Positions 48,001-54,000 of a stretch of 64,000 nucleotides of DNA are shown here, piece after piece. Location: assembly GCF_003018255.1 (NCBI RefSeq), contig NZ_CP027440.1. One strand, given 5' to 3'. The position numbers were made by a program. Origin of the DNA: Escherichia coli (GTDB lineage: Bacteria > Pseudomonadota > Gammaproteobacteria > Enterobacterales > Enterobacteriaceae). The stretch's first letter is position 1; every line of letters begins with the position of its first letter.

Positions 48001-51000
48001 CAAAACCATGAGTCCCTCCCGTCAGGAGGCGTTAGTCTGGGGTTAATCGAATGTTGGTGCAAGTTGAAAAATAAGAATATTCGAGCCTGCTTCCCGATGT
48101 CTGTAACGCCAGTTCACAAGCACTAAAAAACTGCGATCCGCGACGCGTTTTGCAAAAATAATGCGTAATTATGCCGTTACGCTTGCCAAACGTTCCTGCA
48201 CAATGGCGATGAAATCGCGTAATGCCGGCTTCATCTCCCCTTTCTTCCACGCCATCAGTAAAGCAATGGCAGGCACATTTCCGGCAATGGGTCGAAATAC
48301 CACCTGGCCGGTATTAAAATTATTCATATAACCGGGTATCAAAGTGACGCCCAGCCCCATCCCCACCAGATTCATGGTCACCAGAATATTCGTTGCCACC
48401 TGGACGATATTTGGCTGGCTGTTTTCTTGCGCAAACCACGCTTTAACGATCGGCGCAAGCGAACCGGAATACGCTGGATCAGTACTGACGAAATTCACGC
48501 CATCCAGTTGCGCGGCAGTGATCTCTTTTTCATGTGCTAAAGGGTGATCAACCGGTAACACCACCACTAATGGTTCGTCAAAAAGCTCCAGATAATCAAT
48601 CTCCGGGCTATAAACAGGATGGCGCATTAAGCCGACGTCGAGTTCACCACGGCGAATTTTTTCTTCCTGTTCCGTGGTGATTAAACTCACCAGCTCAATT
48701 AAGGTGTCTGGCTGTCTGAGACGAAACATCGGTAATACTTTTGGCAGTAAATTCACTTCCGCCGATGGCACAAAGCCAATGGTTAATTGTCTGTCTTCCT
48801 GAACAATTTTCCGCGCCCGTAATTTGGCATTTTCCGCTTGTTCGAGGATTGCCAGCGCGTCCTGGAGAAAACATTCTCCCGCCGCCGTCAACGCGACTTT
48901 GCGCTTATCCCTCACCAGCAACGGAACACCGACACAGTTTTCAAGATCGCGGATCTGGCTGCTTAACGAAGGCTGTGAGGTATGCAGTTTTTCCGCCGCA
49001 CGGGTAAAGTTCAGTGCCTGCGCCACTGCGACGAAATAGCGTAAATGCCGTAGTTCCATCACCTTCCCCTTGTTATCGAAAAAACGTCTCAGCTGGTAGA
49101 AATTAACTATTTCACATATCAGCAACCAACCAGCAACATCCTTATGGCACAAAAATAGAAGGTCAATACATCTTATCTTTCAGGATTAAAAAATATGACC
49201 ACACCCTCAGATTTGAACATTTACCAACTGATTGACACCCAAAACGGTCGGGTCACTCCGCGTATTTATACCGACCCGGATATTTACCAACTGGAGCTTG
49301 AGCGCATTTTCGGTCGTTGCTGGCTATTTCTCGCCCACGAAAGCCAGATCCCAAAACATGGTGATTTCTTTAACACCTACATGGGGGAAGATGCGGTTGT
49401 CGTAGTGCGTCAGAAAGACGGCAGCATTAAGGCGTTTCTCAACCAATGCCGCCACCGGGCCATGCGTGTGAGTTATGCAGATTGCGGTAACACTCGCGCC
49501 TTTACCTGTCCGTATCACGGCTGGTCTTATGGCATTAACGGCGAGTTGATCGATGTACCGCTGGAACCTCGCGCCTACCCACAAGGGTTGTGTAAATCCC
49601 ACTGGGGACTAAACGAAGTTCCTTGTGTGGAGAGTTATAAAGGGCTGATTTTTGGCAACTGGGATACCAGCGCACCGGGCCTGCGTGATTACCTGGGTGA
49701 CATTGCCTGGTATCTGGATGGCATGCTGGATCGTCGCGAAGGCGGCACCGAAATTGTCGGCGGTGTACAAAAGTGGGTGATCAACTGCAACTGGAAATTC
49801 CCGGCAGAGCAGTTCGCCAGTGACCAATATCATGCTCTGTTCAGCCATGCTTCTGCCGTTCAGGTATTAGGGGCGAAAGATGATGGCAGCGATAAGCGTC
49901 TCGGTGATGGACAAACCGCCCGCCCGGTGTGGGAAACCGCCAAAGATGCGCTGCAATTTGGTCAGGACGGTCACGGTAGCGGTTTCTTCTTTACTGAAAA
50001 ACCGGATGCTAATGTCTGGGTCGATGGCGCGGTTTCCAGCTATTACCGCGAAACCTATGCCGAAGCAGAACAACGTTTAGGTGAAGTTCGCGCCCTGCGC
50101 CTGGCGGGTCATAACAATATTTTCCCCACGCTTTCATGGCTCAACGGCACTGCCACGCTCCGCGTCTGGCATCCGCGCGGCCCTGATCAAGTCGAAGTGT
50201 GGGCGTTCTGTATTACTGACAAAGCCGCCTCCGATGAAGTTAAAGCCGCTTTTGAAAACAGCGCCACTCGTGCTTTTGGTCCTGCTGGTTTTCTCGAGCA
50301 GGATGACTCGGAGAACTGGTGTGAAATCCAGAAATTGCTGAAAGGCCACCGCGCCCGCAACAGCAAACTGTGTCTGGAAATGGGGCTTGGTCAGGAAAAG
50401 CGTCGCGACGACGGCATTCCAGGCATTACTAACTATATCTTCTCAGAAACGGCCGCTCGTGGAATGTACCAACGCTGGGCCGATCTTCTGAGTAGCGAAA
50501 GCTGGCAGGAAGTGCTCGATAAAACCGCCGCTTACCAGCAGGAGGTGATGAAATGAGTGCGCAAGTTTCACTAGAGTTACATCACCGCATTAGCCAGTTT
50601 CTCTTTCACGAAGCCAGTCTGCTGGATGACTGGAAATTTCGTGACTGGCTGGCACAGCTCGACGAAGAGATTCGTTACACCATGCGCACCACGGTTAACG
50701 CACAAACGCGCGACCGCCGCAAAGGCGTTCAACCGCCGACAACCTGGATTTTTAATGACACCAAAGACCAGCTGGAACGGCGAATCGCCCGTCTGGAAAC
50801 CGGCATGGCCTGGGCAGAAGAACCGCCGTCACGCACTCGTCACTTAATCAGCAACTGCCAGGTAAGCGAAACCGACATCCCAAACGTATTTGCCGTGAGG
50901 GTGAATTATCTACTTTATCGGGCACAAAAAGAGCGCGATGAAACATTCTATGTTGGAACGCGTTTCGACAAAGTTCGCCGTCTGGAGGACGGGAACTGGC

Positions 51001-54000
51001 GCTTGCTGGAACGGGATATCGTCCTGGATCAAGCGGTCATCTCCTCCCATAACCTGAGTGTACTGTTCTGATGAATCGAATTTATGCGTGTCCCGTTGCG
51101 GATGTGCCGGAGGGTGAGGCTCTCCGGATCGATACCTCGCCCGTCATCGCCCTGTTCAACGTAGGCGGCGAGTTTTATGCCATTAACGATCGTTGCAGCC
51201 ATGGTAATGCGTCGATGTCAGAAGGGTATCTGGAAGATGACGCCACGGTGGAGTGCCCGCTGCACGCCGCCAGTTTTTGCCTGAAAACGGGGAAAGCGTT
51301 ATGCCTGCCCGCCACCGATCCGCTAACCACTTATCCAGTACACGTTGAAGGTGGTGACATCTTCATCGACTTACCGGAGGCGCAGCCATGAGCGATCTGC
51401 ATAACGAGTCCATCTTTATTACCGGCGGCGGATCGGGATTAGGCCTGGCGCTGGCCGAGCGATTTATCGAAGAAGGCGCGCAGGTTGCCACGCTGGAACT
51501 GTCGGCGGCAAAAGTCGCCAGTCTGCGTCAGCGATTTGGCGAACATATTCTGGCGGTGGAAGGTAACGTGACCTGCTATGCCGATTATCAACGCGCGGTT
51601 AATCAGATCCTGACTCGTTCTGGCAAGCTGGATTGTTTTATCGGCAATGCGGGCATCTGGGATCACAATGCCTCACTGGTTAACACTCCCGCAGAGACGC
51701 TCGAAACCGGCTTCCACGAGCTGTTTAATGTCAACGTACTCGGTTACCTGCTGGGCGCAAAAGCCTGCGCTCCGGCGTTAATCGCCAGTGAAGGCAGCAT
51801 GATTTTCACACTGTCAAACGCCGCCTGGTATCCCGGCGGCGGTGGCCCGCTGTACACCGCCAGTAAACATGCCGCAACCGGACTTATTCGCCAACTGGCT
51901 TATGAACTGGCACCGAAAGTGCGGGTGAATGGCGTCGGCCCGTGTGGTATGGCCAGCGACCTGCGCGGCCCACAGGCGCTCGGGCAAAGTGAAACCTCGA
52001 TAATGCAGTCTCTGACGCCGGAGAAAATTGCCGCCATTTTACCGCTGCAATTTTTCCCGCAACCGGCGGATTTTACGGGTCCGTATGTGATGTTGGCATC
52101 GCGGCGCAATAATCGCGCATTAAGCGGTGTGATGATCAACGCTGATGCGGGTTTAGCGATTCGCGGCATTCGCCACGTAGCGGCTGGGCTGGATCTTTAA
52201 GGAAGCACGATGAAAGAAAAAACGATCATTATTGTCGGTGGCGGGCAAGCGGCGGCAATGGCTGCGGCCTTGCTACGCCAGCAAGGGTTCAGCGGTGAGC
52301 TGCATCTGTTTTCCGATGAGCAACATCTTCCTTATGAACGCCCCCCGCTCTCGAAATCCATGTTGCTGGAAGATTCCCCACAGTTGCAGTCTGTGTTACC
52401 CGCTCACTGGTGGCAGGAAAACAATGTTCATCTGCATTCCGGTGTAACCATCAAAACATTGGGCCGCGACACACAAGAGTTAGTGTTAGCTAACGGCGAA
52501 AGCTGGCACTGGGATCAGCTTTTTATAGCAACCGGCGCGGCAGCTCGACCGCTGCCGTTGCTTGATGCACTGGGAGAACGCTGCTTTACCCTGCGCCATG
52601 CCGGTGATGCCGCCAGACTGCGAGAAGTTCTGCAGCCCGAACGGTCAGTCGTGATTGTCGGTGCCGGAACTATTGGTCTGGAACTGGCTGCCAGCGCCAC
52701 GCAGCGTGGATGTAAGGTGACAGTGATTGAACTGGCGGCAAGCGTCATGGGCCGTAATGCACCACCGCCCGTGCAACGCTATCTTTTACCGCGCCATCAG
52801 CAGGCTGGTGTGCGCATTCTGCTCAATAATGCCATTGAACATGTGGTCGATGGTGAAAAAGTAGAACTGACGCTGCAAAGTGGCGAAACGCTTCGGGCCG
52901 ATGTGGTGATTTACGGTATTGGTATCAGCGCCAACGACCAACTGGCTCGCGAGGCCAACCTTGATACTGCCAATGGTATTGTCATTGATGAAGCTTGCCG
53001 CACCTGCGATCCCGCGATCTTTGCCGGTGGCGATGTGGCAATCACCCGTATTGATAATGGTGCACTACACCGCTGCGAAAGCTGGGAAAACGCCAATAAC
53101 CAGGCGCAAATTGCCGCTGCCGCAATGTTGGGGCTACCGCTTCCGCGACTGCCGCCGCCGTGGTTCTGGAGCGATCAGTACAGTGATAACTTACAGTTTA
53201 TTGGCGATATGCATGGCGATGACTGGATTTGTCGTGGCAACCCGGAAACTCAGAAGGCGATTTGGTTTAATCTGCAAAACGGCGTGCTTATCGGTGCGGT
53301 AACGCTGAATCAGGGGCGTGAGATTCGCTTAATCCGCAAATGGATCCAGAGCGGCAAAACGTTTGATGCGAAACTGCTGATAGATGAGGACATCGCGCTT
53401 AAATCACTGTAACCAGGATAATTAGCGAATATCTCAATGCCAGGGGCGTGGCGAGGTGCAAGAGTGTGTATTACGTTTAAATCACATTATCTTGCAAAGG
53501 GATTGGTTATGAACTCACTACGTTATTTTGATTTTGGTGCTGCACGCCCCGTTTTGTTATTAATTGCCCGTATCGCCGTGGTCTTAATTTTCATTATTTT
53601 TGGTTTTCCCAAAATGATGGGCTTTGACGGTACGGTCCAATATATGGCCTCGCTGGGCGCGCCGATGCCGATGCTGGCAGCGATTATTGCGGTAGTTATG
53701 GAAGTGCCCGCCGCGATATTAATCGTGCTTGGCTTTTTCACCCGTCCGCTGGCGGTGCTGTTTATTTTCTACACGCTGGGTACGGCGGTGATTGGTCACC
53801 ATTACTGGGATATGACCGGCGATGCGGTTGGGCCAAATATGATTAATTTCTGGAAGAATGTCAGTATCGCTGGCGCATTCCTGCTGTTGGCAATTACCGG
53901 GCCGGGGGCGATTTCTCTCGATCGGCGTTAGGAAAGATGCCGGATGCGGCGTGAACGCCTTATCCTGCCTACCGTTCCAACACCAATTGTAGGCCTGATA

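Follow-up and report, generated by a model that had tools for sequence, protein, structure and literature searches.

The hcaEFCBD operon of Escherichia coli raises the question of whether stop and start codons that overlap at three successive gene junctions couple the translation of the genes they join. We addressed it in a 64,000-nucleotide stretch of the E. coli chromosome (contig NZ_CP027440.1 of RefSeq assembly GCF_003018255.1), here called the window, which begins within guaA and extends beyond hcaR, the hca operon, and the yph genes. The likely answer is that translation is coupled from hcaE to hcaF to hcaC to hcaB, by termination-reinitiation on the hcaEFCBD mRNA. The geometry of the junctions, its conservation, the strengths of the Shine-Dalgarno (SD) sequences, and constraint at synonymous sites are all observed directly, and from these we infer both that downstream translation depends on upstream translation and which sub-mechanism is at work.

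Direct reading of the window locates all three overlaps on the + strand. The hcaF start codon lies over the hcaE stop codon in an ATGA sequence at 50553-50556, an overlap of 4 nucleotides (spacing -4). The hcaF stop and hcaC start codons form a TGATG sequence at 51069-51073 (spacing -1), in which the hcaF TGA occupies 51069-51071, the hcaC ATG occupies 51071-51073, and the A at 51071 is common to both. The hcaB start codon lies over the hcaC stop codon in a second ATGA at 51388-51391 (spacing -4). The original prediction, which was made from the sequence alone, gave these same positions. RefSeq annotates all three overlaps, and inspection found no spacer nucleotides at any of the three junctions. 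Only the description of the hcaF stop codon as abutting the hcaC start codon needs correcting, as the two codons in fact overlap by one nucleotide. Downstream of this chain, hcaB and hcaD are separated by a 9-nucleotide spacer, GGAAGCACG, located at 52201-52209 on the + strand between the TAA and ATG codons that bound 52198-52212. Among 33 co-directional gene pairs in the annotated part of the window, overlaps occur only at the three hca junctions. Of the features of the class of overlapping pairs with -4 ATGA or -1 TGATG junctions, a common strand, a single transcription unit, and the junction motifs themselves are present at hca. An SD within the upstream gene, which is usual in this class but dispensable, precedes hcaF and hcaB and is lacking for hcaC.

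The region is an ordinary E. coli hcaEFCBD operon, encoding 3-phenylpropionate/cinnamate dioxygenase and dihydrodiol dehydrogenase. An open reading frame listing and direct reading both give five consecutive + strand reading frames. The hcaE gene (49195-50556, +) encodes the dioxygenase alpha subunit of 453 amino acids, as indicated by its reading frame, by the Pfam domains Rieske and Ring_hydroxyl_A, and by the RefSeq annotation of strain JNE23-011. The hcaF gene (50553-51071, +) encodes the beta subunit of 172 amino acids (Pfam Ring_hydroxyl_B), and its residues 3-172 match the NCBIfam equivalog 3PPDioc_HcaF at 308 bits (cut-off 230). The hcaC gene (51071-51391, +) encodes a Rieske-type ferredoxin of 106 amino acids, which matches Pfam Rieske from residue 3 and the NCBIfam equivalog 3PPDioc_HcaC over residues 1-106, at 187 bits (cut-off 150). 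The hcaB gene (51388-52200, +) encodes the 270-amino-acid dihydrodiol dehydrogenase (Pfam adh_short; RefSeq product name), and hcaD (52210-53412, +) encodes the ferredoxin reductase subunit of 400 amino acids (Pfam Pyr_redox_2 and Reductase_C). All five proteins score above the curated Pfam cut-offs, and the gene order is EFCBD. The DNA at 49000-53500 is 100% identical to the annotated hca locus of E. coli strain JNE23-011, and the RefSeq annotations of three E. coli genomes give hcaE, hcaF, hcaC, hcaB, and hcaD with identical overlaps and the +9 spacer.

These identities bear on which proteins the junctions join. HcaB is a short-chain dehydrogenase, the next enzyme of the pathway, and is not a dioxygenase subunit. 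The chain thus runs from the alpha subunit to the beta subunit, the ferredoxin, and the HcaB dehydrogenase, and the reductase HcaD lies outside it, behind the 9-nucleotide spacer. The earlier proposal of tight coupling among the dioxygenase subunits is therefore retained as to coupling, for which conservation, frozen SD codons, and an hcaC start without an SD argue, but not as to the set of proteins involved. A single transcription unit is indicated by five reading frames that are all on the + strand and by the lack of any + strand promoter-like match in the region. One weak terminator-like match is found inside hcaB, and the totals of promoter-like and terminator-like matches do not exceed the shuffled expectation. 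The corresponding transcription unit of strain K-12 is tabulated as hcaEFCBD (PMC10666635 Table_3).

The spacing of the junctions was compared across relatives. One scan of species-representative genomes for HcaF yielded 80 loci whose HcaF proteins are 64-98% identical. Grouped at genus level, these loci represent 20 groups of gamma- and beta-proteobacteria: Citrobacter, Kluyvera, Pseudocitrobacter, Entomohabitans, Shimwellia, Serratia, Edaphovirga, Photorhabdus, Vibrio furnissii, Acinetobacter, Paraburkholderia, Burkholderia, Cupriavidus, Massilia, Advenella, Kerstersia, Lampropedia, metagenome-assembled genomes of Neisseriaceae and of Chromobacteriaceae, and an Escherichia group consisting of locus L010 and the E. 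coli-like contig L009. The five genes were placed by tblastn, and each was extended to its stop codon. Downstream start codons were chosen by the best anti-SD duplex plus a start-codon penalty, from -45 to +15 nucleotides around the start projected by homology, a rule that is blind to the distance from the upstream stop codon. A rule that took the candidate closest to the projected start was dropped, because internal GTG codons in many Burkholderiales loci gave spurious spacings of +23 to +44. Counts of sequences include the window itself, and counts of genus-level groups exclude it.

Every locus that holds all five genes has them in the order EFCBD, and the three overlapping junctions are tight throughout. 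The hcaE/hcaF spacing is -4 in 70 of 81 sequences, -8 in seven, and -1 in two, with 97.5% inside -8 to +10 nucleotides. At hcaF/hcaC, the spacing is -1 in 45 of 79 sequences, +2 in 24, and +3, +5, +9, or +10 in eight (97.5% inside the same range), and at hcaC/hcaB it is -4 in 30 of 80, -1 in 30, and +2 in 15 (95%). The hcaB/hcaD spacing ranges from +8 to about +1300 nucleotides, and only 33% of the sequences are inside -8 to +10. When the modal spacing of each genus-level group is considered, it is inside this range in 20 of 20 groups for hcaE/hcaF, 19 of 20 for hcaF/hcaC, and 20 of 20 for hcaC/hcaB, compared with 9 of 18 for hcaB/hcaD. The latter junction serves as an internal control, in that spacers of this operon do expand if nothing holds them. 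Spacings at hcaF/hcaC and hcaC/hcaB shift in steps of three nucleotides (-1/+2/+5 and -4/-1/+2, respectively), so these junctions change, yet remain tight. In the hcaC/hcaB shifts, the hcaC stop codon slides in one phase and the hcaB start codon stays put. That the spacing is kept over 20 genus-level groups shows the tight junctions to be maintained rather than accidental. The 80 loci are nevertheless clustered in phylogeny, and the start codons assigned to them are predictions.

The hcaF and hcaB genes have SD sequences inside the upstream gene. The hcaF SD is AGGAGG at 50540-50545 (+), in hcaE codons Q449-E450-V451 and 7 nucleotides before the ATG, and has a predicted anti-SD duplex of -11.6 kcal/mol. 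The hcaB SD is GGAGG at 51376-51380 (+), in hcaC codons P102-E103-A104, likewise 7 nucleotides before its ATG (-9.5 kcal/mol). For comparison, the median is -6.15 kcal/mol for 42 annotated starts in the window and -2.4 kcal/mol for random 20-mers, of which 0.07% are as strong as the hcaF duplex and 0.6% are as strong as the hcaB duplex. The value for hcaE is -4.1 kcal/mol, and an SD-like AAGGAAG upstream of hcaD, which overlaps the hcaB TAA, is found at 52199-52205 (+; -6.1 kcal/mol). Upstream of hcaC there is no SD above background, with a duplex of -3.1 kcal/mol against the random median of -2.4. Medians among the homologues are -10.8 kcal/mol for hcaF, -3.1 for hcaC (79 homologues), and -9.5 for hcaB, and an hcaC SD above background is missing in nearly all lineages of this set. 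An exception is Shimwellia (locus L028), in which the hcaF/hcaC spacer is +9 nucleotides and contains GGAG.

Codons that form the SD sequences are also constrained at synonymous sites. Codon alignments of the five genes contain 310 two-fold-degenerate columns in which at least 40 sequences have the amino acid of the window, and the mean codon entropy over these columns is 0.86 bit. Entropy is zero in only two of the 310, which are HcaE Q449 (CAG in 45 of 45) and E450 (GAG in 78 of 78), the core of the hcaF SD. The five lowest columns also include HcaC E103 (GAG), within the hcaB SD, and HcaF F172 (TTC), which immediately precedes the TGATG. The result for F172 is weak evidence, as two other Phe codons are found within the seven lowest columns. 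The SD-forming codons are thus under selection at the nucleotide level. Because the sequences are related by descent, the counts exceed the number of independent events.

Coupling is a reasonable reading of these data for several reasons. The three junctions are tight in 19 or 20 of the 20 genus-level groups and the hcaB/hcaD spacer is not so kept, the codons that make up the SDs show little or no synonymous change, no SD precedes hcaC, and four of five tested native E. coli pairs with -4 spacing were coupled in reporter assays (Huber et al. 2019, Nat Commun 10:4006, PMC6728339). In that study, the region from -99 to +30 was enough for coupling in the tested -4 pairs. Removal of the SD lowered reinitiation in four of the five E. 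coli pairs, with a contribution of the SD that ranged from essential to none. The hca junctions resemble these pairs in having an AUGA overlap and an SD within the upstream gene. They differ in that three junctions occur in series, one of which is a -1 junction without an SD.

Four frames on one polycistronic mRNA are chained by -4 (AUGA), -1 (UGAUG), and -4 (AUGA) overlaps. By the proposed mechanism, a ribosome or 30S subunit that finishes at the hcaE stop codon would already sit at the hcaF AUG, and the intragenic AGGAGG may hold this post-termination ribosome so that it restarts on hcaF. The step from hcaC to hcaB would be handled likewise, with GGAGG. The strong SDs of hcaF and hcaB could thus retain the post-termination ribosome, or they could permit extra de novo initiation. 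Because hcaC lacks an SD, its translation most plausibly depends on ribosomes from hcaF, and would be almost wholly reliant on their delivery. The alpha and beta subunits of an alpha3beta3 oxygenase would then be expected to be made in matched amounts, with the output of ferredoxin and dehydrogenase tied to both, and HcaD, which has a 9-nucleotide spacer and its own moderate SD, would be less tightly linked. Rieske oxygenases such as the cumene and terephthalate dioxygenases are alpha3beta3 complexes, which provides a rationale for synthesizing alpha and beta subunits in a 1:1 ratio. The case for matched synthesis draws on this background about Rieske oxygenases and on a published 4.5-fold enrichment of short spacings among subunits of heteromeric complexes (PMC10666635).

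A stronger claim is that hcaC is a natural, SD-less, obligate reinitiation site, whose AUG would be reached only by ribosomes terminating at the hcaF stop codon. The hcaC AUG is within +10 nucleotides of the hcaF stop codon in 19 of 20 genus-level groups, and we regard the chances for and against this claim as evenly balanced. If it is true, the output of ferredoxin would be a fixed fraction of the output of beta subunit, and the hcaF-hcaC junction might offer a clean native system for studying how bacteria terminate and reinitiate without an SD.

Several observations weigh against coupling, and many of them favor a neutral origin of the overlaps instead. Under the neutral explanation, the overlaps are a by-product of genome compaction and of second codons that begin with A, ribosomes start on every gene independently, from a binding site that belongs to that gene, and coupling is not functionally significant. 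All five hca genes begin with ATGA (the second codons are ACC, AGT, AAT, AGC, and AAA for hcaE, hcaF, hcaC, hcaB, and hcaD, respectively), so an overlapping TGA stop codon is available by default to an upstream frame in the right phase, and -4 overlaps can arise neutrally. The SDs of hcaF and hcaB are very strong, among the strongest in the window, and could allow independent de novo initiation. The 110-nucleotide regions around the junctions fold no more stably than dinucleotide shuffles (z = -0.18 for hcaE/hcaF, -0.38 for hcaF/hcaC, -0.09 for hcaC/hcaB, and +0.84 for hcaB/hcaD), and hence give no sign of a structure that blocks independent initiation. The -4 pair bioBF is not coupled (PMC6728339), and 707 of 2,987 unidirectional E. 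coli pairs (24%) have spacings within -8 to +6 nucleotides (PMC10666635). The conservation data, as noted, come from clustered loci with predicted start codons. Literature searches found no expression, ribosome-profiling, or reporter data on hca, and nothing relevant on translational coupling of dioxygenase alpha and beta genes; the search for the hca cluster gave only papers citing the cluster.

More distant dioxygenases also speak to the neutral explanation. A dioxygenase operon on a Rhodococcus plasmid has an alpha/beta spacing of -4, as in hca, but the spacing is +36 in Thermomicrobium and +54 in Burkholderia sp. FXe9, in operons that also differ from hca in gene order and in where the ferredoxin gene lies. 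Distant dioxygenase operons thus work with longer spacers, and the family does not need an overlap. The plasmid homologues are too distant to be treated as orthologous operons (at most 46% identity), one of the records carries no annotation, and we use them only to show that the overlap is not universal.

Despite these points, we consider the neutral explanation rather unlikely. The hcaC gene lacks an SD in the window and in nearly all homologues, yet its ATG is no farther than +10 nucleotides from the hcaF stop codon in 97% of loci, and GGAG is present in Shimwellia, where this spacer has grown. Moreover, the hcaB/hcaD spacer of these operons varies from +8 to +140 nucleotides and tolerates the insertion of a gene, which implies that compaction alone does not keep junctions tight.

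Coupling might also be achieved through RNA unfolding, in which the upstream ribosome melts a structure that hides the SD or AUG, opening the site for initiation by a new 30S subunit. When the hcaE/hcaF junction is folded to minimum free energy, GGUGAUG, comprising the end of the SD and the next bases, pairs with CAUCACC in hcaF codons 10-12, and the hcaF SD has a mean unpaired probability of about 0.3 in enterobacterial homologues. A 2025 review leaves both reinitiation and unfolding models open (PMC12548453). However, the folds of the three overlapping junctions (z from -0.09 to -0.38) are not notable against shuffles. The 7-base-pair hcaE/hcaF helix was set aside as unsupported, because coding or SD requirements determine both of its arms (the 3' arm through His-His codons), which leaves no possible test for covariation. 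Termination-reinitiation fits better than unfolding, because at -4 and -1 junctions a new ribosome cannot load before the terminating one leaves (PMC12548453), because no junction has a notable structure, and because hcaC offers no SD to be unmasked. We therefore judge unfolding to be improbable as the route of coupling.

Misannotation, in which the real hcaF, hcaC, or hcaB starts are farther downstream and leave spacers, is not a credible explanation of the overlaps and has a negligible chance of being correct: homologous start codons are predictions and hcaC of the window has an in-frame GTG 33 nucleotides downstream, but in relatives this codon is either TTG or missing, only one in-frame ATG, GTG, or TTG candidate lies near the N-terminus projected by homology in each of hcaF and hcaB, the protein family matches of HcaC and HcaF begin at residues 1 to 3, and the junction ATG codons are kept across the 20 genus-level groups.

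The overlaps are real and conserved, and they are already known, as an instance of a textbook phenomenon. The K-12 genes (b2538-b2542) are listed in Supplementary Tables 2-3 of Huber et al. 2023 (Front Microbiol 14:1291523, PMC10666635), with spacings of -4 for hcaE-hcaF, -1 for hcaF-hcaC, -4 for hcaC-hcaB, and +9 for hcaB-hcaD, so that annotation and this published table give exactly the spacings of the window. The hcaE-hcaF and hcaF-hcaC pairs are flagged there as encoding subunits of a complex, and hcaC-hcaB is not. The window belongs to a different E. coli lineage from K-12, and its junction sequences and geometry are unchanged. For the COG4638@COG5517 pair, corresponding to HcaE@HcaF, the entry for 444 species is -1, -4, 12, which we read as median and spread (PMC10666635 Table_4). 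The arrangement is ordinary as a class, because minimal overlaps of stop and start codons are the commonest same-strand spacing in prokaryotes. Among unidirectional pairs of E. coli, -4 is the most common spacing, followed by -1 and -8 (PMC10666635).

The comparative additions made here are incremental. They comprise the conservation of an hcaC start without an SD, the freezing of the SD codons, and the internal control provided by hcaB/hcaD, and the locus has little significance beyond confirming that its annotation is correct. It offers a small illustration of how selection keeps three junctions close while the proteins diverge by about 35%, and freezes synonymous sites that double as ribosome-binding sites, with an SD-less start apparently tolerated only where a terminating ribosome is directly delivered. 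These features are relevant wherever hca or a related Rieske dioxygenase operon is to be redesigned for biocatalysis, since separation of the genes, or recoding of hcaE, hcaF, or hcaC at the 3' end, would likely disturb the subunit ratios.

Several of the homologous loci have features of their own. In all Photorhabdus and Acinetobacter loci, an MhpB-like gene of about 320 codons lies between hcaB and hcaD. The insert matches the NCBIfam model for 3-carboxyethylcatechol 2,3-dioxygenase (L050, 6162-7115, E = 7e-143; L086, 6226-7188, E = 2e-108). It puts the next step of the pathway into the hca operon, whereas mhpB of E. coli is in a separate operon. Gaps of about 1,025 nucleotides between hcaB and hcaD likewise occur in Advenella and in one Paraburkholderia locus.

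Two natural variants have lost an overlapping stop codon by a point change. In Citrobacter youngae ATCC 29220 (L024, about 4490-4515), ATGA has become ATGC, and hcaE reads on to a TAG with a 13-nucleotide overlap. In Photorhabdus namnaonensis (L071), the hcaC stop codon is gone and the overlap with hcaB is 14 nucleotides. The operon of Kluyvera genomosp. 3 YDC799 (L015) looks broken: hcaE has a premature TAA 61 nucleotides ahead of hcaF, there is no hcaC start candidate in range, and both hcaC/hcaB and hcaB/hcaD show a disturbed arrangement. This damage reflects either pseudogenes or indel errors in the assembly.

Vibrio furnissii CIP 102972 (L027) contains an hca operon of the enterobacterial type, with HcaE 90% and HcaF 81% identical to those of the window. 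Its spacings are those of the window as well (-4/-1/-4/+9), and horizontal transfer is suggested. The 6.4-kb contig L009, from a metagenome-assembled genome labeled "Citrobacter sp.", encodes five Hca proteins that are 97-100% identical to those of the window, and is probably a mis-binned E. coli contig.

Within E. coli, the DNA at 49000-53500 matches 4,402 of 5,426 complete genomes, and about 1,000 lack the hca locus. The hca allele of the window is rare, being found at 99% identity or more in only 10 genomes, and most others are about 97.4% identical. This rarity indicates that the window comes from a sparsely sampled lineage (JNE23-011 is from Japan and human).

Other closely spaced genes are found in the window. 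On the - strand, the yfhM and pbpC genes have a spacer of zero (27811-27812), and hscA and fdx are separated by 1 nucleotide (37428-37430). Spacers of +9 to +11 nucleotides occur at hcaB-hcaD, yfgM-bamB, fdx-iscX, and yphC-yphB, and belong to the class of spacings from +9 to +12 that Huber et al. 2023 (PMC10666635) described as E. coli-specific. The convergent genes csiE (+, ending at 46878) and hcaT (-, ending at 46870) overlap at their 3' ends by 9 nucleotides (46870-46878, TCAGCATGA). Finally, the region at 4507-15888 on the - strand, between xseA and der, looks like a strain-variable adhesin island, in which an 8-kb gene annotated as encoding an adhesion domain-containing protein adjoins a SinI-family gene and the inverse autotransporter gene SinH.

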